Positions 4,679 to 21,038 of a stretch of 64,000 nucleotides of DNA are shown here, piece after piece. How positions within the stretch are numbered: position 1 is the stretch's first letter; the number at the start of each line of letters is the position of its first letter. The notes under the pieces were generated by a model. That model did no database searches. It was not told where the DNA came from and saw only the letters and a list, made by a program, of their open reading frames with translations. The stretch lies in assembly GCF_056712565.1 (NCBI RefSeq), contig NZ_CM160072.1, one strand, 5' to 3'. The position numbers were made by a program, and so were the translations under genes.

Positions 4679-4763
4679 TTTTACGCCAGCCTCTTTACTG
4701 TATATAAAACCAGTTTATACTGTACACAATAACAGTAATGGTTTTTCATACAGGAAAACAACT

Positions 4764-8347: not shown

Positions 8348-8561
8348 ACCTATATAAGCGATACTAATCAAATCCTCACCGCGCCTCCCTATCCGGTGGC
8401 GCGAATGAACATCTTATCGACTGTCAAATCTGACACAGATGTAGCCATCCCATTGCTTAATCGAAAAAAAATCATACTATGCAGGCGCTAATTCCAGGAT
8501 GATAACGCCTTTTGGGCTAGTCATGCTGCTCATAAATCTGGTATACTTACCGTTACACATT

Positions 8562-8924
8562 GGGGCTGATTCTGGATTCGACGGGATTTGCGAAACCCAA
8601 GGTGCATGCCGAGGGGCGGTTGGCCTCGTAAAAAGCCGCAAAAAATAGTCGCAAACGACGAAAACTACGCTTTAGCAGCTTAATAACCTGCTTAGAGCCC
8701 TCTCTCCCTAGCCTCCGCTCTTAGGACGGGGATCAAGAGAGGTCAAACCCAAAAGAGATCGCGTGGAAGCCCTGCCTGGGGTTGAAGCGTTAAAACTTAA
8801 TCAGGCTAGTTTGTTAGTGGCGTGTCCGTCCGCAGCTGGCAAGCGAATGTAAAGACTGACTAAGCATGTAGTACCGAGGATGTAGGAATTTCGGACGCGG
8901 GTTCAACTCCCGCCAGCTCCACCA
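8562..8924 (+). ncRNA. ssrA: tmRNA (SsrA, 10Sa RNA)
   Basis: Begins GGGGCTGATTCTGGATTCGACGGGATTTGCGAAACCCAAGGTGCATGCC, contains tag-peptide coding region, ends ...GGTTCAACTCCCGCCAGCTCCACCA; 363 nt. Confidence 0.95.
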
Positions 8925-9085
8925 ATCATGATTGGACGGTGTAAGGACAACACCAACAAAAACAGGAAGTTAGAAGTCTCAGCAGGACACCGACCAGACG
9001 GTGAGGAGACATAAAAGGATACGCAAAGGAGCCGCGGCTCCGAAGTGAAATGAAAGCCCGCTGATGCGGGCTTTTTTGCTTCTTC
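8898..9085 (+). repeat. attL: ssrA 3' core (cgggttcaactcccgccagc) plus ~170 bp similar to the attR copy
   Basis: Near-identical to 53357..53540 by direct comparison, including the terminator hairpin aaagcccgctgatgcgggctttttt. Confidence 0.7.
9055..9077 (+). terminator. Rho-independent terminator downstream of ssrA
   Basis: agcccgctgatgcgggct hairpin followed by TTTTTT. Confidence 0.6.
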
Positions 9086-9452
9086 TCTTTAGCCTGATTC
9101 GACACTCTCAATGCGGCCATAAACAACAACCCACTTTTCTTATACCGTAGCCTGTCCCCCTCTTCCTGCTTTCTAACCATAACAGATGTGAGCGTTTGCT
9201 ATGAGCGATATATAGTCATTCGTACCCTCCGATACTAATCATCACAGAAATTAATATATTCATTCCTTACTGAAAAGCTATGAAGTAGATATATAGGATT
9301 GGGGCGCGTATGGCACTGGACAGTTATGCATCTCCGAATATTATTCCGGAGCTAAGACAACTAGACTGGCCCCCTGAATCTCCAGACAACCAATATCACT
9401 TATTTAAGTGATAGTCTTAATACTAGTTTTTAGACTAGTCATTGGAGAGCAG

Positions 9453-9818
9453 ATGATTGATGTCTTAGGACCGGAGAAACGCAGACGGCGTACCACACAG
9501 GAAAAGATCGCAATTGTTCAGCAGAGCTTTGAACCAGGGATGACGGTCTCCCTCGTTGCCCGGCAACATGGTGTAGCAGCCAGCCAGTTATTTCTCTGGC
9601 GTAAGCAATACCAGGAAGGAAGTCTTACTGCTGTCGCCGCCGGAGAACAGGTTGTTCCTGCCTCTGAACTTGCTGCCGCCATGAAGCAGATTAAAGAACT
9701 CCAGCGCCTGCTCGGCAAGAAAACGATGGAAAATGAACTCCTCAAAGAAGCCGTTGAATATGGACGGGCAAAAAAGTGGATAGCGCACGCGCCCTTATTG
9801 CCCGGGGATGGGGAGTAA
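9453..9818 (+). CDS. insC: IS2 transposase OrfA (InsC)
   Basis: [56 protein letters not shown]... Confidence 0.85.
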
Positions 9819-10681
9819 GCTTAGTCAGCCGTTGTCTCCGGGTGTCGCGTGCGCAGTTGCACGTCATTCTCAGACGAACCGATGACTGGATGGATGGCCG
9901 CCGCAGTCGTCACACTGATGATACGGATGTGCTTCTCCGTATACACCATGTTATCGGAGAGCTGCCCACGTATGGTTATCGTCGGGTATGGGCGCTGCTT
10001 CGCAGACAGGCAGAACTTGATGGTATGCCTGCGATCAATGCCAAACGTGTTTACCGGATCATGCGCCAGAATGCGCTGTTGCTTGAGCGAAAACCTGCTG
10101 TACCGCCATCGAAACGGGCACATACAGGCAGAGTGGCTGTGAAAGAAAGTAATCAGCGATGGTGCTCTGACGGGTTCGAGTTCCGCTGTGATAACGGAGA
10201 AAAACTGCGAGTCACGTTCGCGCTGGACTGCTGTGACCGTGAGGCACTGCACTGGGCGGTCACTACGGGCGGCTTCAACAGTGAAACAGTACAGGACGTC
10301 ATGCTGGGAGCGGTGGAACGCCGCTTCGGCAACGAGCTTCCGGCGTCTCCAGTAGAGTGGCTGACGGATAATGGTTCATGCTACCGGGCTAATGAAACAC
10401 GGCAGTTTGCCCGGATGTTGGGGCTTGAACCGAAGAGCACGGCGGTGCGGAGTCCGGAGAGTAACGGCATAGCAGAGAGCTTCGTGAAAACGATAAAGCG
10501 TGACTACATCAGTGTCATGCCCAAACCAGACGGGTTAACGGCAGCAAAGAACCTTGCAGAGGCGTTCGAGCATTATAACGAATGGCATCCGCATAGTGCA
10601 CTGGGTTATCGCTCGCCACGGGAATATCTACGGCAGCAAGCCAGTAATGGGTTAAGTGATAACAGGTGTCTGGAAATATAG
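9776..10681 (+). CDS. insD: IS2 transposase OrfB (InsD), DDE integrase-like catalytic domain
   Basis: 301 aa overlapping orfA in another frame (frameshift fusion arrangement typical of IS3 family). Confidence 0.9.
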
Positions 10682-10839
10682 GGGCAAATCCAACAACCGA
10701 ATGCCGCAGCAGGTAAGATCACGCTAGGGGGGCTGGACAGAATGGCTGTTACGCCCAGTGTGAAGAAAAGAAGGCTAAGTATGGTAGAATTTCCATACGC
10801 ACAGACCTTGTTATCCGACTATACAGCCTGGAAGGCACT

Positions 10840-11628
10840 ATGACAAATCTACAACTGGAAGAAAGATTTAGGGCGCTTGAGAAAGATTACGATGCGCTCA
10901 TTTCCACAAAATATACTGCGCAGAACGTTCTCACTCACACTATGGAAACCTATGTTGATTCTGGTAAATATAAAAACTGGATCGCCAGAGTGAAAAAGTT
11001 AATAGAGGACAGCTACGGAAAAGAGTCTGATTATTACAATGACTTCAATACTGTAAACAGCAGGTGGTCTTCTAATTACAATACACTGATCAAAAGTTAT
11101 AAACCGTTGTTTGATGCGGCGAGAGATGATCTTGCGCACTCTGCTGTCAGTACTAATACTCCTCAAGAAGGTTCGCCGCTGAGCCTCGTACTTAATATTC
11201 TTAACAGGTTTCCGACCTTTGTTCGCCAGTTAAAGAGGCGGTACAACGGCCGTGCGCCGCTTGAAGTTAATGATGAGTATGACGTACAGGATTTGATTTA
11301 TGCACTGCTGACGCTTCATTTTAATGATATTAGGGCGGAAGAGTATACCCCCAGCTTTGCGGGCGCGGCCTCAAGACAGGACTTTCTTTTGAAAAAAGAG
11401 AAAATTGTGATAGAGGTGAAGAAAACCCGTGAATCTCTGGGAGCGGGTAAAGTTGGTGGAGAGTTGCTTATTGATATGGCGCGCTACCGCGCTCACCAAG
11501 ACTGCGATACGTTGATCTTGTTTGTATATGACCCGGATTGCTACATAAATAATCCTTTGGGCGTGAAAACCGATCTGGAATCTAAAGACGCGGAAGGAAA
11601 AGTGAAGGTTGTTATTGCGCAGTTCTGA
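10840..11628 (+). CDS. Hypothetical protein, helical N-terminus and possible PD-(D/E)xK nuclease-like C-terminus; defence candidate
   Basis: 262-aa ORF; C-terminal D...(D/E)xK-like motifs (DVQDLIYALL ... KEKIVIEVKKTRE); no family recognised; lies in the accessory islet. Confidence 0.5.
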   Translation: MTNLQLEERFRALEKDYDALISTKYTAQNVLTHTMETYVDSGKYKNWIARVKKLIEDSYGKESDYYNDFNTVNSRWSSNYNTLIKSYKPLFDAARDDLAHSAVSTNTPQEGSPLSLVLNILNRFPTFVRQLKRRYNGRAPLEVNDEYDVQDLIYALLTLHFNDIRAEEYTPSFAGAASRQDFLLKKEKIVIEVKKTRESLGAGKVGGELLIDMARYRAHQDCDTLILFVYDPDCYINNPLGVKTDLESKDAEGKVKVVIAQF

Positions 11629-11663
11629 CACGCTTAAGTGTCACCTTACAGGATTAGGTTTGC

Positions 11664-11709
11664 GGCCGTGCCAGCAGGACGAGCATGAAAAAGGCCGCTG
11701 GCACGGCCG
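11664..11709. terminator. Long hairpin between convergent ORFs
   Basis: cggccgtgccagc ... gctggcacggccg, 13-bp perfect inverted repeat. Confidence 0.4.
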
Positions 11710-11715
11710 GATTTG

Positions 11716-12009
11716 TCATCTTTGCCAGGTCAAATCAAAATCTACGTGAAAATCCGCAGGCTTAAGCTCGCAACTGCCACCACGCCCAATTAACGACGTT
11801 ATGTTTACAACGTTTGAACCTGTTGAGATGGCAAGTTGAGTGTCATCTGTAAACGTGATGATTAGCATTTCAGTCTGATGAACCTGTACTCCAGTTTTCT
11901 GAAAACCAATCTGGACAGATTTCACCGTTTTCCCAACCATTTCACGGGCTTGATTGATAGAGTAATTAGCTTCAACTTGTAGGTCATTCCTGAACTTGGG
12001 TAGTGTCAT
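11716..12009 (-). CDS. Small hypothetical protein (97 aa), downstream partner of the GIY-YIG gene
   Basis: ORF co-oriented with and downstream of 12220..13026; no recognisable motif. Confidence 0.45.
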   Translation of the reverse strand: MTLPKFRNDLQVEANYSINQAREMVGKTVKSVQIGFQKTGVQVHQTEMLIITFTDDTQLAISTGSNVVNITSLIGRGGSCELKPADFHVDFDLTWQR

Positions 12010-12219
12010 TTTACATCCTCTTTAGTGAAGTTTTCGCTATTTAAATCAGCAGCATTCCTTTTAAATCACTGGCATGTCAGCAGTGGATAGTCTGAGTGTA
12101 ACGTCCAGTGAGGGGAATAAATATTGGTCAGACTTTGCACAAAAGAGCCAACTATCGCGGGCTCTCTCTCATCATGTGCGAAAATTGACCACAATATGAA
12201 ATCCAGTTCCATTCCGAAA

Positions 12220-13044
<825 letters not shown>

Positions 13045-13152
13045 TCAATTGACAACTTATAATCCCTACTAGTTAGCATTATGATTTCCAGAGTGAGGAA
13101 TATAAAAATCTCTGTTTCTGGCACATAACAGCCCTTAAGATCGTAGCTCGCC

Positions 13153-13200
13153 ATCATGGGGTGTCGGGGGGCGGAGGTTCAAATCCTCTCGTGCCGACCA
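13153..13200 (+). other. Truncated tRNA 3' fragment (T-arm, acceptor, CCA), tRNA-Pro-like
   Basis: catggggtgtcggggggcggaggttcaaatcctctcgtgccgacca resembles the 3' half of tRNA-Pro as recalled; no matching 5' half upstream; followed by hairpin + T-run at 13215-13240. Confidence 0.55.
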
Positions 13201-13441
13201 AAAATCCCTTAAGAACCAGCCTATTATGGCTGGTTTTTTTATGATTGTTTTTTATGCGGAGAAATACCGGGGAATAATTGGGGTAAAACACCTTTAGGCT
13301 ATTCACTTAGCCTACCACCATCAAAATCTTTCCGAATGTATCCATCTCTTTTTTCTTATGCAGCTAAAACGAAGTCTTGATACTGTTTATTTACACAGAT
13401 AAGAATAATACTGTCTACAAACGCAGTACAAAAGAAGTGTT

Positions 13442-13620
13442 ATGCGTATTGAGATCTCCATAGCCAAAGACAAAATGACCAAATGCCAAACGGCGCTGTG
13501 GACGCGTTAAAGGAAGAATTAACCCAACACATTGGCAAGCGTTATGACGATGTGGAGATGATCGTAAAAGCCACCAGCAACGATAGTTTTTCAGTTAGAC
13601 ATACTGCAGATAAAGATTGA
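13442..13620 (+). pseudogene. DinI-like protein, frameshifted and C-terminally truncated
   Basis: Frame 1 [14 protein letters not shown] then stop; shifted frame continues [37 protein letters not shown], matching the DinI-family pattern MRIE..IAK...LP.GA.DAL..EL. Confidence 0.5.
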
Positions 13621-14044
13621 GCTAAAACTTTCGTTCAGGAAACTCTGAATGATACCTGAGAGTCTACTGAAGAGTTGTTTGTTCACTAGTTAGCACGTAG
13701 GAAATCATTCAATACTCGCACTATCGGAAGTTCACCAGCCAGTCGTAGCACGTCCTTGCAAACGACGTGCCTACGGTTTCAATCACCTCTCACCATCAAT
13801 TCTATCAATAATAATTAAACAGCGCCTAGACAAAATAAATAACAACAAGTCAACAACCTCGACAGGATGCCGATGGGATGATGAAGAGATAAGAAAGAAT
13901 AACCAGTAAAGCCCTAAAACGTCAGCGTTCAGACGCGTTTTTTACTTAATCGGTAACAAATACGTTGTATCATAGCAAAATAAAATGATTGTTCTAAATC
14001 AGATTAACTCCTCACTTTTGTACAATGTCGCTTACAGGTATACC

Positions 14045-15934
14045 ATGAAATCCGAGACGCTAACTGTCCAACAACTTTTTCAAGACCGCCGACAATACTG
14101 TGTTCCATTCTATCAACGTGCCTATGTATGGACTCAGCAAGACCAGTGGTCAGCTCTACTGGAGGATATCCTAGAGAAAGTACAATCCCGGCTCTCGGGT
14201 ACAAAACCAACTCCCCATTTCCTTGGTGCGGTTGTACTGGAACCTCAATCAAAAAAAGGATTATTAGGTGTAGATTCCATACATATTATTGATGGTCAGC
14301 AACGATTGACCACTCTTCAATATGTTCTGGCATCCATCCGATTAGCATTACGTGCTACGGATCTTTCCAGCTTAGAGGCTCTCATTTCGCCTTGCCTGAA
14401 AAACTCAAACGAAGACACAATGCGAAATAAAGAAGTAGAACGCTTCAAACTGTGGCCAACTTTTCGGGATCAAACTCATTTTATTCAAAGTTTTAATGTT
14501 GAAAATATTGACGATCTCCGGGACGTATTCTCTGATAGTTTCACGCAGCATGGTACGTTGCGTAAGCATTTTAATCACCCGCCATCACTAGAAGCATTAT
14601 GTTTTTTTACTGAAGCCTTTATAAAATGGATTAAAATAGAAAACCACTCACCACAAGAAAATGCTGTAGCTCTAATTGAGGCTGTCTTAACAGATCTGAA
14701 ACTGGTAAGCATATTTCTCGAAGCTGAAGATGATGCCCAAATAATTTTTGAAACATTAAATGGGCGAGGGGCGGAACTTCATGCTACGGATCTTATTCGC
14801 AACTATATCTTTATGTGCGCTGAGCATGAAAATATTAATGCTATTGAATTATATGAAAATGAGTGGAAGAGCTTTGAAGATAAATACTGGTCGGAAAAAC
14901 AACGCCGTGGACGTATTAATAAACCACGCATGGAGTGGCTAGTACATGCGACATTGCAATCAGAAAGGCAACGTGAAATTGATCTGTCTCGCCTTTACAA
15001 TGAGTATCGTGATTATGTAAGTAAGGACTTGTCTTCACAACGAGCAGATCTGCAAGTAAAGCGCCTCAAACAATATGCATCACAATATAAAGAATTGGTT
15101 GATGGTTTTGGCACAACCCCCATCTCACACTTTGGATATCGCATCGCAGACTATGATGTGACGACACTTTATCCGCTTGCTTTGTTCATTTCGATAGCTA
15201 ACATCGCTGATGATGAGAAAGCAGCCATGTATAATGATCTTGTCTCCTACGTAGTACGAAGAGCCGTATGTGGCCTGACGCCAAAGAATTACAACAATGT
15301 ATTTATGAATGTATTGCGGCACTTGGCTAAAACGGAAATTTCCAGTGTTGAGTTACGTAATATCCTCAATAACTTAAATGGCGAAGCCTCACGTTGGCCT
15401 GGTGACTCAGAATTTCTCAACGCTTGCATCAATGCTCCACTTTATCCTGGCAGGCTCGACGCACCGAAAATGCGCTCAATGTTAACGGAACTTGAAAGAG
15501 AACTTTGTCGCCAAGTAAAGACAGAAAAGCCTGATGTTCCAAATCTTTCTAATCTCGATATCGATCATCTTATGCCTCAAAGTTGGTATTCCTGTTGGCC
15601 TCTCGAAAATGGTCGTATGGTGACAAATTCAGATGCTACGGTATTGAACCAAATTGTTCTGTCTGGAACCGATCTTACCCCTGAACAGCTACTGGTAAGG
15701 AAACGGCAACAAGCGATATCTACTTTGGGAAATCTAACTTTGCTTAACCTTAGCGTAAACCGTTCTGTTCAGAATGCTGTATTTCTGAAAAAACGTGATG
15801 CTCTCATCGTCCACACCAATCTACGACTGAACATTCCACTTATAGTTAAGGATAAATGGGATGAGGATGAAATCCTGGAGCGGGGTAAAAAGTTGGGGGA
15901 AATTGCATTGAAAGTATGGCCAAAACACGATTAA
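14045..15934 (+). CDS. Type IV restriction endonuclease, GmrSD-like (N-terminal DUF262/ParB-like, C-terminal DUF1524/HNH-like)
   Basis: N-terminal DGQQRLTTL motif; C-terminal DIDHLMPQSW...N motif; start taken at MKSETLTVQQLF; AT-rich gene. Confidence 0.75.
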   Translation: MKSETLTVQQLFQDRRQYCVPFYQRAYVWTQQDQWSALLEDILEKVQSRLSGTKPTPHFLGAVVLEPQSKKGLLGVDSIHIIDGQQRLTTLQYVLASIRLALRATDLSSLEALISPCLKNSNEDTMRNKEVERFKLWPTFRDQTHFIQSFNVENIDDLRDVFSDSFTQHGTLRKHFNHPPSLEALCFFTEAFIKWIKIENHSPQENAVALIEAVLTDLKLVSIFLEAEDDAQIIFETLNGRGAELHATDLIRNYIFMCAEHENINAIELYENEWKSFEDKYWSEKQRRGRINKPRMEWLVHATLQSERQREIDLSRLYNEYRDYVSKDLSSQRADLQVKRLKQYASQYKELVDGFGTTPISHFGYRIADYDVTTLYPLALFISIANIADDEKAAMYNDLVSYVVRRAVCGLTPKNYNNVFMNVLRHLAKTEISSVELRNILNNLNGEASRWPGDSEFLNACINAPLYPGRLDAPKMRSMLTELERELCRQVKTEKPDVPNLSNLDIDHLMPQSWYSCWPLENGRMVTNSDATVLNQIVLSGTDLTPEQLLVRKRQQAISTLGNLTLLNLSVNRSVQNAVFLKKRDALIVHTNLRLNIPLIVKDKWDEDEILERGKKLGEIALKVWPKHD

Positions 15935-16029
15935 TGCAATTAATAAAATGATTATAGTGGCCTTACATTAGTAAGGCCGCTACTCACTATTAAATACTTT
16001 AATTTGCATCAAGAACAGCAGTGTCAGCC

Positions 16030-16158
16030 CTAGGTCTCGGACTTTGTACCGCTTATCTTGTCTTCAAAAATCAGCTCGCATCCTGCACAGTTCAGCGCAT
16101 TACGTTGTAGATCTGTGTTCTGGTCATTTGTTGACACACGTACATAGCCAATAAGCAT
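16030..16158 (-). pseudogene. DNA invertase (Pin/Gin/Hin family) truncated to an N-terminal ~41-codon fragment
   Basis: Reverse-strand translation MLIGYVRVSTNDQNTDLQRNALNCAGCELIFEDKISGTKSET then stop; N-terminus of serine invertases including the catalytic-Ser region. Confidence 0.75.
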
Positions 16159-16184
16159 GGTAGATCTCCCTGACAAAAGCAGGA

Positions 16185-16679
16185 ATGATGCCATTTGCTC
16201 GTTATTTCTGCATTTTCATAAACGTTGGTTTGGGAGAAGGCTCTGCATTACCTGTTGGTGTGCCTGTTCCATGGCCTTCAGCCACACCGCCAACAGGCTG
16301 GCTGAAATGCAACGGTGCGGCTTTTTCTGCTGAAGAATACCCGGAACTGGCAAAGGCTTATCCGACAAATAAATTGCCTGATTTACGTGGTGAGTTTATT
16401 CGTGGCTGGGATGATGGGCGCGGCGTTGATTCAAGGCGTGCGGTGCTGTCAACACAAGAGCCAACTGTAGGTACTTTTTATGTGGAGCTAGCTATCATCT
16501 CGGGAACTTTGAGCGGCTCAGGTGCTAAATTTACCGATTCAGTAGGGATTGGATCAACCAGTAGTAACATTACCGTTAGCAACGGTAATGACCAGTCCGT
16601 GTCGGGTACAGTGGCCGTTAACCCCGTCGATACCCGTCCACGCAACATTGCATTTAACTATATCGTGAGAGCAGCATAA
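16185..16679 (+). CDS. Alternative tail-fibre C-terminal cassette (Sv'-like), in the unexpressed orientation
   Basis: Contains phage tail-collar-like motif VPVPWPSATPPTGWLKCNGAAFSAEEYPELAKAYP; shares the LGLGE crossover sequence with the expressed tail-fibre gene. Confidence 0.7.
   Translation: MMPFARYFCIFINVGLGEGSALPVGVPVPWPSATPPTGWLKCNGAAFSAEEYPELAKAYPTNKLPDLRGEFIRGWDDGRGVDSRRAVLSTQEPTVGTFYVELAIISGTLSGSGAKFTDSVGIGSTSSNITVSNGNDQSVSGTVAVNPVDTRPRNIAFNYIVRAA
16226..16240. repeat. Left inverted repeat / crossover site of the invertible tail-fibre segment
   Basis: ttggtttgggagaag is the exact reverse complement of 18141..18155. Confidence 0.65.
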
Positions 16680-17281
16680 TGGATAAAGCAATATTAAATA
16701 GTGGACTTGTTGCTACAAAGGCAGGGGATATTACCGTTTATAACTATGATGGTGAAACTCGGGAATATATTTCCACTTCAAGTGAATATCTTGCCGTTGG
16801 TGTTGGTATCCCGGCATATTCCTGTCTGGATGCACCAGGTATACATAAGGCGGGTTATGCTATCTGTCGTTCTGTGAATTTAAATTCATGGGAATATGTG
16901 CCAGACCATCGCGGTGAAATCGTCTATAACACCGAAACGGGAGAATCAAAACAAATCACAGCACCGGGTGATTACCCCGAAAATACAACCACTATTGCCC
17001 CATTAACGCCATACGATAAATGGGATGGTGAGAAATGGGTGACCGATACTGAGGCACAGCATAGCGCCGCAGTAGACGCGGCAGAAGCACAGCGTCAGTC
17101 ACTGATTGATGCTGCAATGGCTTCCATCGGTCTGATTCAGCTGAAATTACAGGCCGGACGGAAGCTGATGCAGGCAGAAACAACCCGGCTTAACGCTGTG
17201 CTGGATTACATTGACGCGGTGACGGCAACAAATACCAGCACAGCGCCGGATGTCATCTGGCCTGAACTGCCGGAGGCGTAG
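16679..17281 (+). CDS. Tail fibre assembly protein (alternative Tfa, partner of the Sv'-like cassette)
   Basis: 200 aa; C-terminal LDYIDAVTATNTSTAPDVIWPELPE typical of Tfa chaperones; convergent with and overlapping the other tfa. Confidence 0.75.
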   Translation: MDKAILNSGLVATKAGDITVYNYDGETREYISTSSEYLAVGVGIPAYSCLDAPGIHKAGYAICRSVNLNSWEYVPDHRGEIVYNTETGESKQITAPGDYPENTTTIAPLTPYDKWDGEKWVTDTEAQHSAAVDAAEAQRQSLIDAAMASIGLIQLKLQAGRKLMQAETTRLNAVLDYIDAVTATNTSTAPDVIWPELPEA

Positions 17282-17696
17282 GCCATTCAATATCTGGCGC
17301 ACAGGAAGTATCGACCAGTTCCAGTGCGTCCAGATAATCCAGCCACGAATTATATTGCGCCAGTTCCTCGCCTTTCAGACGACCAATAGCAGCTTTGCCA
17401 GGCCACTGATGGGTATTGATGTAGGTATTGACTTCTGAAACCAAAGATATTTTTTTCATTTCAGCCGTCAACACCTCATCCTCTTTTGAAGGGGGTGGGG
17501 AATTAATCCATACTGGCCGTCCTGAACTGTCAGCGCCAATTTCTTTCCCTTCTGGATGCAGACCAAGAAATTGCTCATATGTTTCTCTGGTAATTTCAAT
17601 AACATCATCAGGAAGCGTTCCCGCATCCTCATATTCTGGAAACAATTCTTGCAGATAAAAACTTTTACTTCCGGGTGAAAAGAATACTGAGTTCAT
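17253..17696 (-). CDS. Tail fibre assembly protein (Tfa)
   Basis: 147 aa, C-terminal LDYLDALELVDTSCAPDIEWPTPP motif. Confidence 0.75.
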   Translation of the reverse strand: MNSVFFSPGSKSFYLQELFPEYEDAGTLPDDVIEITRETYEQFLGLHPEGKEIGADSSGRPVWINSPPPSKEDEVLTAEMKKISLVSEVNTYINTHQWPGKAAIGRLKGEELAQYNSWLDYLDALELVDTSCAPDIEWPTPPAVQAR

Positions 17697-17698
17697 TA

Positions 17699-18442
17699 TT
17701 ACCGTCCAATGATTAACGCTGAGACGCTGGTATCTGAAGGAAAGGCTGCATTCAGTGGTTTGTCGACTTTGAACACAATCGTATTATTCCCCCTGACAGC
17801 GGCAAAAGAACAAACCGCCGTCGCGTATGAACCTGTAATATTACTGGATACACCACCATAAGCTGTTGTTGATACCAGAGGGATAACGCCCAGCACCTTA
17901 TTAGGAAATACAAAGGGCAATGTGGCTGTGGCAATATAAGACTTATTAGAACCTGTGATGGCATAAGCATTATCAGTCATTCCATTCATCGCCACTGGGC
18001 CGCTTATACTTACAGTAACCATCTGAATGATTAGCCCGTCAGGTTGACGAATCACAAAATTTCCATTGCCACCAGTAACCGTCCAGAAAGACATATCAGG
18101 GATTTGGTTTTCCCCGTTGCCCACATTCCGTTTTGCCGCTTCTCCCAAACCAAGGTTTTCGAGAGCCGTTTTCACCGTGCCGTCCGATTTGATATCGCTA
18201 AACGGATTCTTGCGGCTTAACAGCAGCGCACGAAGCGCGGTAAGCAGCTGGTCGTGCCGCGCCTTCTCCAGACTGGCACCGGATGCCTCCACCACGCTGC
18301 AGAGTTCTTCCTGCAACATGTCAAAGTAGTCATCATCCAGATCGGTGGCAGGCGTGCCTGTCTGGGGGTTACCACGGGTAAAACCGTTCTTACCCGCGCC
18401 GAACTTATCCTTCTGCGCGGTTTTCGTGTCTATACGATGCAT
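17699..18442 (-). CDS. Tail fibre protein (constant N-terminus + currently expressed variable C-terminus)
   Basis: 247 aa [29 protein letters not shown]...; crossover LGLGE inside the gene; e14 StfP-like. Confidence 0.75.
18141..18155. repeat. Right inverted repeat / crossover site of the invertible tail-fibre segment
   Basis: cttctcccaaaccaa, reverse complement of 16226..16240. Confidence 0.65.
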
Positions 18443-18445
18443 GGA

Positions 18446-19030
18446 TTACTCCGGATATTTAAAAATTACGTAGGTATGCGAAGGGCAGAGTTTGTTAAGC
18501 ACACATTCGACGACGGTGTCGCCCCAGATACGCAGCGCGGAATCACAGGGATCGCCACATGTCATCCAGGTGCTGTTGGTGGCGGCTGGCATGTTGACCT
18601 GCCAGTAATACCGCCATTCCGGCGCATTCACCGCGTCAGTACAGGCCGATGAGCAGGTGAACGTGCTTTTGTCGTATCGCGTGATGGTGGCGTCTGGTCT
18701 GCCCAGGGCAGCAAGCTGTGCAAGGTAAAAATCCTCATTGATGCCGCCCGCCAGGTTAACCTTCGCATCCAGTCGTTGCTGACGCTGGCGAAGGGTCTGT
18801 GTTCCTGCGGGAATACATTCATCCGGCAGGCCGCACAGACGCTCCCAGCGATTTATCAGTTCGGTGGTGGTGCGCGGATCCAGCTCCCGCATCAGGGCAT
18901 CCGCACGCTGATGAACGCGGGTTAATGACTGTGCCGCACCGGCAATCGCCGGATCGCTGGCTGACCACGCCGGACCGGGCGGCAGCAGTGCCGACAACAG
19001 ACGGATGTAATCATCGTTTGTCACGCCCAT
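18446..19030 (-). CDS. Tail protein, Mu gp48 / YmfQ-like (DUF2313)
   Basis: 194 aa [29 protein letters not shown]...; located between baseplate J and the tail fibre. Confidence 0.65.
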
Positions 19031-20078
19031 GAAATCGTCCCCAGAACCGCCAGTTCATTTTTTGCAATGGAGATATTTTCCGCCGGTGCAAGCAATTGAT
19101 GGCTGTATTCCCCGTTCGCACCGGAAATCGCTTCACTGATACGCGACACCTTCAGTTCTCCCTGCGGATAACCATCACGCAGCAGGAACGAACGCAACTC
19201 CGCGGTGATGGCAGCCCGTATTTCCGGTGTATCCGGCGTCACACGGATATGAAAATCCACCGTATGCGCACCGGCCTGAACACATACAAATCAGAGCCTG
19301 CCACCGGGGCCAGTGGCCCGATATGTTGTCTTGCCGCCGTTTCCGTTGATTCTTCCGGAATGGGATTAATCAGGTCACTGCTGGCAATCATCACACCGAC
19401 AGTCCCCGTTCCCATCCAGTGACGGTATGCCCATGCGCGGGTAATGCCGGGCAATTCTTTAGCCCAGACAACATAGTCCCCGTCAGCCCCGCCCTGAGGC
19501 GTCCAGTAATACCGCTCAATGACGCGGGCGCGCCACGTTTCCAGCTCTTCAGTATCAAATCCACCTGTCAGAGTGTCTGCCACGCCGGAAGACGGCAGAC
19601 CATTAACCGGCGTGACCAGGATTAATGACGTACCGTCGTCAGCGTTACCGACCGCGCCTGCACTTGAGCAGGCGATCGGCACGCGCAGGACACCACCGGC
19701 GCTGGTTGCATCGGCAGTTGCCGTGTACTGAATCAGGTCATCGCGCTGAATAACACTCCCGGCGGTCACCTTCAGGCCATCGCTGACGCCTTCCCAGCGC
19801 ATATACCCGCTGGCAGTCGTGGCCCCCTTGCGCGGACACCGTTTCATCGCAGCATGTCGCGCCAGCCAGGACTCATCGCACAGGTCAGGCAGCATGTTCA
19901 TTGCCAGATAATCGATGTACCCGTAAACCGTATGCAGCGCCGCCGCATACACCTTTGCCCGCACGTCTTCATCCATGCGCCGGAGCGTGTCGCTGACGTC
20001 CAGCCTGGCGAATAAATCGTTACGGAGCATACTGATATTTTCTGCCAGCGTCGGGCGCTGAAATTCACTGTCCGCCAT
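19021..20078 (-). pseudogene. Baseplate J-like protein (Mu gp47-like), split by a frameshift
   Basis: N-terminal 279-aa ORF (19239..20078) and C-terminal 79-aa ORF (19021..19260) overlap in different frames; together ~350 aa. Confidence 0.55.
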
Positions 20079-20493
20079 GCGTTATCGCACTCCACAGATC
20101 ATCTAAAGAAATCATTACCGGTCCGTCACGACGCCAGAGAGTGATACTGTTACCCAGTTCATTAATCCCGGTGCGGAGGATATCCAGATCAATACGGGAC
20201 ACCACGCCGTCATCAATCATCCATTGCAGGCATTCGCGGATATACCCCCTTACCGTCTGCACCAGCTGATTGGTCAGTTTGCTGCGCTGAAGCAGCCACA
20301 GTCGGGAGCCGTAACGGTCATTCTGTACCGCAGGCCAGGTATCCCCCCACCATCCCATCGGGACGTCGGCGTTGTCATCAGGCTCCGCCCGCCGCCAGGT
20401 AAACAGGGAAATCACCACGGCGCGGGTCAGCGGATCCAGCGGTGCGCTGGCGCAGGTGCGTTTACCGTTCACCGTCAGCCACAGTTCCATCAT
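20065..20493 (-). CDS. Baseplate protein (Mu gp46 / GPW-gp25-like)
   Basis: 142 aa; position and size in a Mu-like baseplate cluster. Confidence 0.6.
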   Translation of the reverse strand: MMELWLTVNGKRTCASAPLDPLTRAVVISLFTWRRAEPDDNADVPMGWWGDTWPAVQNDRYGSRLWLLQRSKLTNQLVQTVRGYIRECLQWMIDDGVVSRIDLDILRTGINELGNSITLWRRDGPVMISLDDLWSAITHGGQ

Positions 20494-21038
20494 GCCTCCA
20501 TCGCTTTATCAGGTTTGTCGGTGTTACTGCCCTGACCGTTCTCTCTGTGACGATGCCCGTTATAGGCAAGCCGCATCGCTGACATGGTGGTGCCGCTGGA
20601 GTCGCACAGGTCTTTCACCTGTCCTGTCACTTCCAGGTCCATTTCAAAACGTGCTTCAGGTGCATTGCGAAACGTGATCGTTTTACCTGCACCGTCCACC
20701 ACGATCCCCTCCCGGGTCAGCGTCACAGACTGCCCCTGATCGTCATAGACCGCCACCTCACCCGTCTGCAGCCCTTTCAGGCGGTAGCGCCGGTCCGACA
20801 CCGTAACAACCACCGCATGAGAACGGTCACCATCCGGAAACAACACCACCGCTTCCGCACCGCTGTTTGCCCTTGCGGTAAAACCGTAGGGTTCAAGATG
20901 TTCAACCCCGGCTTTGGGTTCACCGGCAATCAGGGACACATCCACGGTCTGACATTTCGTGGCGGCACTGATGCTTTTCACCACTGCCCGCCCAATCAGG
21001 CCGAGGAGTTGTCGCTGCATGGCTTCAATCGTACTCAT
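20490..21038 (-). CDS. Baseplate assembly protein V (Mu gp45-like)
   Basis: 182 aa; synteny. Confidence 0.6.
   Translation of the reverse strand: MSTIEAMQRQLLGLIGRAVVKSISAATKCQTVDVSLIAGEPKAGVEHLEPYGFTARANSGAEAVVLFPDGDRSHAVVVTVSDRRYRLKGLQTGEVAVYDDQGQSVTLTREGIVVDGAGKTITFRNAPEARFEMDLEVTGQVKDLCDSSGTTMSAMRLAYNGHRHRENGQGSNTDKPDKAMEA

Follow-up and report, generated by a model that had tools for sequence, protein, structure and literature searches.

The window analysed here is a 64,000-nucleotide stretch of E. coli DNA in which the remains of a DinI-like gene lie at the edge of a prophage. The tail, head, lysis, regulatory and integrase genes of the prophage span approximately 16-51 kb of the window. 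The relic lies in a small cluster of defence genes between ssrA, the tmRNA gene at 8562-8924, and the prophage tail genes. The cluster includes:

10840-11628: a protein with a DpnII/MboI-type restriction endonuclease domain
12220-13026, minus strand: PD-T4-3 (GIY-YIG, 8.6e-137), to the left of the relic
14045-15934: GmrSD, a type IV methyl-directed restriction enzyme (PADLOC mREase_IV, 1415 bits), to the right of the relic

Two other features of this neighbourhood were noted. An insertion sequence of 1331 bp (9362-10692), located between ssrA and the defence genes, contains two overlapping transposase ORFs (136 and 301 amino acids) and has a 5-bp target duplication, ACAAC. Neither UTI89 nor any of the best-matching complete genomes, each with 89% coverage of the 8500-20500 query, has this element. 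We take it to resemble IS2 based on its length and terminal sequences. Further to the right, a 1.9-kb segment of tail-fibre and tail-fibre-assembly genes (16220-18158) is inverted with respect to UTI89 and is flanked by 20-bp imperfect inverted repeats, AAACGTTGGTTTGGGAGAAG and AAACCTTGGTTTGGGAGAAG. This segment looks like a Gin/Pin-type invertible host-range switch. As the RefSeq annotation shows the adjoining recombinase gene reduced to a 123-bp remnant, the inversion either needs an invertase in trans or predates the loss of the recombinase.

The extent of the DinI-like pseudogene was set by codon-by-codon alignment to the intact 82-amino-acid genes of the O157:H7 ssrA prophage and phage cdtI. 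Lesions were called against the same two 82-codon relatives, namely the ssrA-adjacent DinI-like gene of O157:H7 (WP_001217542) and gp30 of phage cdtI, using an alignment that also took in the closest non-identical copy, a proL-linked gene of strain DETEC-P169 (92% identity). The gene and its lesions are as follows:

13442-13689, plus strand: DinI-like pseudogene, full extent, 82 codons minus 1 nt, with a terminal TAG at 13687-13689
13481-13483, plus strand: lesion 1, a run of three A where intact alleles have four; a 1-nt deletion in codon 14 and a -1 frameshift (alignment)
13618-13620, plus strand: lesion 2, TCA (Ser60) to TGA (codon table against intact relatives)
13657-13659, plus strand: lesion 3, TGG (Trp73, the equivalent of DinI W71) to TGA (codon table and DinI alignment)
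13675-13677, plus strand: lesion 4, TGG (Trp79, the equivalent of DinI W77) to TTG, Leu (codon table and DinI alignment)

An uninterrupted ORF of approximately 80 codons is thus absent, the frame being broken by the deletion in codon 14 and by TGA at codons 60 and 73. The first frame, from the ATG at 13442, yields a 22-amino-acid ORF (13442-13510, stop at 13508-13510), and the -1 frame yields a 45-amino-acid ORF (13483-13620) that ends at the TGA of lesion 2. Past this codon, the -1 frame reads AKTFVQETLNDT*ESTEELFVH*, which is colinear with the C-terminal helix of DinI; the relic therefore extends to 13689. According to the codon table, the terminal TAA of the intact alleles is TAG in the window allele, which has 11 more private amino-acid replacements, 10 of them at codons 29-77.

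A sequence-only reading had described a gene at 13442-13620 with a frameshift after 14 codons and a truncated C-terminus. Indeed, the relic is present in that interval, and comparison with intact relatives confirmed a 1-nt deletion in codon 14 (ACT AAA ATG CCA in intact alleles, ACC AA- ATG CCA in the window). However, the relic continues to 13689 and contains a second in-frame TGA. The C-terminus is not missing: its coding sequence is present up to 13689 but is cut off by the change of Ser60 to TGA, beyond which lie the changes at Trp73 and Trp79.

Membership of the DinI family was evaluated using the conceptually repaired protein of 82 residues. This protein matched Pfam DinI, PF06183 (43.7 bits, 3.5e-11; cutoff 24.2), and PHROG 189, 'RecA filament binding protein DinI' (1.9e-22), and its residues 1-81 aligned to residues 1-79 of the solved E. 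coli DinI, 1GHH (1GHH/7YWA, 2.4e-7). Its identity to intact phage DinI-like genes was 78-82% across all 82 residues. For the NCBIfam equivalog NF007893, whose cutoff is 111 bits, the repaired protein scored 52.8 bits and the intact O157 relative 69.9 bits. Based on these scores, the gene is a prophage paralogue and not an orthologue of chromosomal dinI.

The RecA-DinI cryo-EM structure provides a basis for judging the lesions: F203 of RecA enters a DinI pocket of L13, L21, W71, W77 and F78, an acidic patch of E24, E69 and D76 touches the RecA groove, and substitutions at the RecA-contact residues of DinI impair filament stabilisation (PMC9926225). Alignment to the solved DinI places W71 at codon 73, which has become TGA, and W77 at codon 79, which now encodes Leu. 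All of the C-terminal RecA-contact residues are positioned beyond the first stop of the relic. As judged from these reading frames, no translation product of the relic can include the C-terminal helix with its RecA-contact residues, and no product of the 13442-13689 locus would be able to act as a DinI protein. Because the helix would be missing from any such product, binding and stabilisation of the RecA filament are predicted to be absent.

Homology to the proL-linked copy spans 13143-13782, delimiting a phage cassette of approximately 640 bp, and homology to other dinI cassettes stops at ~13782-13795. The elements of the cassette that flank the gene are as follows:

13143-13200, plus strand: 3' fragment of a tRNA-Pro (proL type, tRNA positions ~20-77), a phage att-type relic and non-functional as a tRNA (BLAST/MAFFT)
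13211-13238, plus strand: intrinsic-terminator hairpin and T-run, 3' of the tRNA-Pro fragment (terminator scan)
13377-13406, plus strand: sigma-70-like promoter, TTGATA - 18 - AAGAAT (promoter scan, 9/12)
13381-13398, plus strand: predicted LexA (SOS) box 1, TACTGTTTATTTACACAG (pattern TACTGT-N9-CAG)
13409-13426, plus strand: predicted LexA (SOS) box 2, TACTGTCTACAAACGCAG(TA) (pattern TACTGT-N9-CAG)
13743-13776, plus strand: hairpin with a weak U-tract in the conserved 3' untranslated tail (RNA fold)

The tRNA-Pro fragment is located 4.2 kb downstream of ssrA. Its 58 nt end in ...CGTGCCGACCA and are identical at 54 positions to the intact tRNA-Pro beside the DETEC-P169 copy; the segment matches tRNA-Pro in essentially all E. 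coli genomes. ARAGORN called no tRNA at 13143-13200, and an Rfam scan of 9500-14500 gave no hit to a tRNA or other RNA family within the module. When a second tRNA-Pro/att copy was sought near the prophage integrase (~50.2-51.4 kb), no direct repeat of at least 16 nt was found. The terminator, an 11-pair stem followed by TTTTTTTAT, is identical in the proL-linked copy. At the other end of the cassette, alignment with the proL and O157 copies revealed a 15-nt deletion just 3' of the stop codon of the relic.

The promoter region of the cassette is conserved in intact relatives. LexA box 1 is kept in all relatives, and the intact ones have TACTGTATACAAACACAGTA at the position of box 2. The pattern TACTGT-N9-CAG occurs at four sites in the 64 kb (five matches on both strands), compared with 0.27 expected by chance. 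The only other sites are two adjacent boxes upstream of recN (4696-4737, TACTGTATATAAAACCAG and TACTGTACACAATAACAG), which served as a positive control. Scanning with the full 20-mer LexA consensus at up to 3 mismatches gave no match, the sites being those of the looser core pattern. With two LexA-box matches, the promoter of the relic would be subject to SOS-type regulation.

The position of related genes bears on the origin of the cassette. The order in phage cdtI is int-attP-dinI, the gene being beside the integrase/att region, and in O157 and DETEC-P169 the dinI-like gene directly follows the tmRNA (ssrA) or a tRNA gene. Based on this att-, tRNA- or tmRNA-adjacent position in all three, the ancestral unit was probably an accessory cassette under SOS regulation, carried near the att site by lambdoid or mosaic prophages.

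Comparison of the window with DETEC-P169 revealed that the relic is a mosaic. Identity was 99-100% at 13201-13441, 96% at 13442-13524, 85% at 13525-13689 and 84% at 13690-13782. Thus, the 5' part, comprising the tRNA-Pro fragment, the promoter and codons 1-28, is near-identical to the frameshifted proL-type copy, and the 3' part, from codon 29 to the 3' tail, is an allele diverged by approximately 15%. All 23 of the window-specific substitutions fall in 13526-13689, and the 3' half of the DETEC-P169 copy is 97% identical to intact alleles. The substitutions of the window allele are AT-biased (14 GC>AT versus 5 AT>GC).

Selection on the diverged 3' part was evaluated using the Nei-Gojobori method. 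Its dN/dS was 0.23-0.27 (dS 0.39-0.49), compared with a dN/dS of 0.09-0.13 for intact pairs. The nonsynonymous fraction, calculated from small numbers, was above that of the purifying selection typical of the family (p=0.013) and below neutrality (binomial p=0.003). Pure neutral decay, at first read from the 14 nonsynonymous and ~6 synonymous changes, was rejected based on the dN/dS, and a mosaic allele with partial relaxation is favoured. As the dN/dS is well under 1, most of the divergence arose either while the allele was functional or in an unsampled lineage. The most likely origin of the 3' half is a separate allele lineage in which the gene remained functional through most of its history and decayed later, recombination inside dinI having attached it to the frameshifted 5' part.

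Recombinant metagenomic contigs support this mosaicism. The P0032 variant combines an intact, O157-like 5' part with the same two-stop 3' half and GmrSD, and the P0014 variant combines the frameshifted 5' part of the window type with a 3' half of the intact type (recombinants at L007 621-800 and L006 297-503). The P0041 variant has a 7-nt tandem duplication, CCAAATG, which re-phases the frame, and keeps both TGA stops (L008 1391-1576). Lesion 2 was found in every contig bearing the window-type 3' half, and no intact protein with this 3' half was found among 5.8e9 protein clusters. In two of the three P0041 contigs, an AbiTii-domain gene takes the place of PD-T4-3 on the left (L008 180-1100, L009 290-1210); GmrSD is on the right in L008, and L009 ends just past the relic. 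Defence genes thus appear to have been swapped around a constant relic.

These contigs raise the question of whether the cassette, although dead as a coding sequence, is kept for a non-coding role: as an SOS promoter reading into GmrSD, as a site of LexA binding or titration, or as a homology anchor for the exchange of defence genes. Counter to a view of the locus as a pseudogene and nothing else, no damage is seen in the promoter or in either LexA box, and the promoter region (13376-13441) is 100% identical to that of the proL copy, whereas the coding 3' half is 15% diverged. In addition, the terminator scan called no canonical terminator on the plus strand from 13690 to the start of gmrSD, the U-tract of the 3' hairpin being weak. 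In all contigs seen, GmrSD is linked to the window-type 3' half, whereas the gene on the left is either PD-T4-3 or AbiTii, and the recombination breakpoints lie inside dinI. However, recent recombination without selection explains the uneven divergence equally well, the metagenomic L011 variant has several substitutions in the -35 element and LexA box 2, and approximately 350 nt, including the hairpin, separate the relic from gmrSD. It is therefore conceivable, but unlikely, that the dead dinI cassette persists for its flanks, acting as a recombination anchor by which PD-T4-3 or AbiTii and GmrSD are swapped between prophage ends, and that its LexA-controlled promoter could put GmrSD under SOS control.

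It is considerably less probable that the 45-amino-acid ORF (13483-13620) or the 22-amino-acid ORF (13442-13510) encodes a functional short DinI-family protein or micropeptide. The 45-amino-acid ORF alone does score above the Pfam gathering cutoff for PF06183 (31.9 versus 24.2 bits), some gene callers predict it (P0107, 19 member sequences), and the SOS promoter upstream looks intact. Nevertheless, the ATG at 13483 is not preceded by a Shine-Dalgarno sequence, and the ORF is without the first beta-strand and without the C-terminal helix, which includes the equivalents of DinI E69, W71, D76, W77 and F78. It contains eight of the window-specific amino-acid changes and is not preserved as a unit, as variants have a 7-nt duplication at the start context or a swapped 5' part. 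Finally, the sequence-only reading had named an intact shorter DinI-family member as the finding that would speak against a degraded gene; every intact family member found was 82 amino acids long.

The distribution of the relic was evaluated using 13100-13950 (851 bp). Among the matches listed, this stretch was 100% identical in 20 of 20 complete E. coli genomes, including UTI89, S88, APEC O1, IHE3034, NU14 and ATCC 11775, and 117 records were at least 99% identical; for a 371-bp core, 172 records were. The disabling lesions, as defined against intact homologues, thus recur across independent assemblies, and the codon-14 frameshift is not private to this locus, being shared with the proL-linked copy of DETEC-P169 and with metagenomic variants. 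Finding the same sequence in many independent assemblies rules out a sequencing artefact. That the gene is intact and its frameshift and stops arose through errors of sequencing or assembly is a reading we dismiss: the frameshift does sit in a short A-run (A3 versus A4), a classic site of homopolymer miscalls, but the 20 identical complete genomes were sequenced independently, on several platforms and in several years, the three further independent lesions (two TGA and W79L) are not homopolymer errors, and the same lesions occur in unrelated metagenome assemblies.

Expression by recoding, in which a programmed frameshift and read-through of TGA as Trp or Sec would restore the protein, is just as implausible. 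Both internal stops are TGA, one of them in place of a Trp codon, and a database protein, P0004, has Trp at all of the TGA positions. This protein (84 amino acids, 96% identity) was considered as an intact homologue and rejected, as it is the same pseudogene DNA read with code 4, TGA being taken as Trp. Its source is a 583-bp metagenome contig (L011 282-536) whose DNA has TGA at all three positions, and it is not translatable from its own contig under code 11. Moreover, the other TGA replaces Ser and not Trp, the host E. coli uses the standard code, no slippery heptamer is present at ACC-AAA-TGC, three events would be required within 82 codons, and W79L would still cost a required RecA-contact residue. 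Metagenome-derived protein databases include a spurious "intact" version of this gene, which is a trap for homology-based checks of intactness. Separately, the E. coli DinI-like proteins P0001-P0003 (NCBI/UniRef) are 108-112 amino acids long and have internal tandem duplications of ~26-30 residues.

We conclude with high confidence that 13442-13689 is a non-functional pseudogene of a prophage-borne DinI paralogue. PGAP/RefSeq annotates the identical UTI89 locus, which sits downstream of ssrA, as a pseudogene, "DinI-like family protein; frameshifted; internal stop", in agreement with the earlier description of a degraded DinI-family gene in a decaying accessory region. The locus is an ordinary pseudogene, part of a prophage remnant in E. 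coli of phylogroup B2, already annotated by the NCBI pipeline and hence already known. In E. coli 98E11, a different DinI-like allele occupies the same chromosomal site, directly after ssrA (L012 1567-1815); it too is a pseudogene, has an internal stop and arose independently. This suggests that prophage remnants repeatedly lose their att-proximal DinI-like genes to decay.

From these comparisons we infer an ancestral function, regulation by LexA and an order of events. The ancestor would have been a self-contained cassette in which an 82-codon ORF was preceded by a promoter that two LexA boxes overlap and was followed by a 3' hairpin. Its place would have been the att-proximal end of a lambdoid or mosaic prophage, beside the integration site at a tRNA or tmRNA gene. 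Judged by homology, the protein would have bound the groove of the RecA filament in the SOS response and modulated filaments. As for the relic, loss of one nucleotide from the A-run shifts the frame at codon 14, and the changes at Ser60, Trp73 and Trp79 lie downstream. The 5' part closely matches the proL-linked copy, likewise frameshifted, and the 3' part is a diverged allele, always found with both stops and linked to the GmrSD gene. Mosaic halves of this kind imply recombination within dinI between prophage ends.

As a routine pseudogene, the relic is of little importance in itself. It is usable as a marker, since recombination of the prophage ends at proL and ssrA has left its trace in the shared frameshift and the mosaic 5' and 3' halves, and it marks the border of the small defence-gene cluster (PD-T4-3, GmrSD).

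Of the known systems compared, the dinI-gfoA operon of the Salmonella Gifsy prophages likewise contains a prophage-borne dinI paralogue, and its promoter is under LexA control. In Gifsy, the paralogue shares its transcript with gfoA, a gene required for induction, whereas the cassette of the relic is monocistronic and dead, with no antirepressor after it. Chromosomal E. coli DinI (1GHH; RecA-DinI cryo-EM structure, 7YWA) belongs to the same family, PF06183, and has the same length; the relic can be aligned to it from residue 1 up to 79-81, with the MRIE N-terminus and the ETWES..(D/E)WFV C-terminal helix both covered, but is a paralogue, not an orthologue, in which the equivalents of W71 and W77 are destroyed. 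The DinI-like proteins of E. coli lambdoid, Stx and cdt phages (cdtI gp30, YP_001272543; O157:H7 WP_001217542; PHROG 189) are colinear with the relic over all 82 codons, and their genes share with it the two-LexA-box promoter, the 3' tail and the att-proximal site next to a tRNA or tmRNA gene. These phage genes are intact, whereas the relic carries a frameshift, two TGA codons and W79L, along with 11 further replacements that are private to its 3' half. Finally, the proL-linked DinI-like pseudogene of DETEC-P169 (PID12_RS08110), itself annotated as frameshifted, has the same A-run deletion, promoter and tRNA-Pro-derived upstream sequence as the relic; unlike the relic, it directly follows an intact tRNA-Pro and contains no internal stops.
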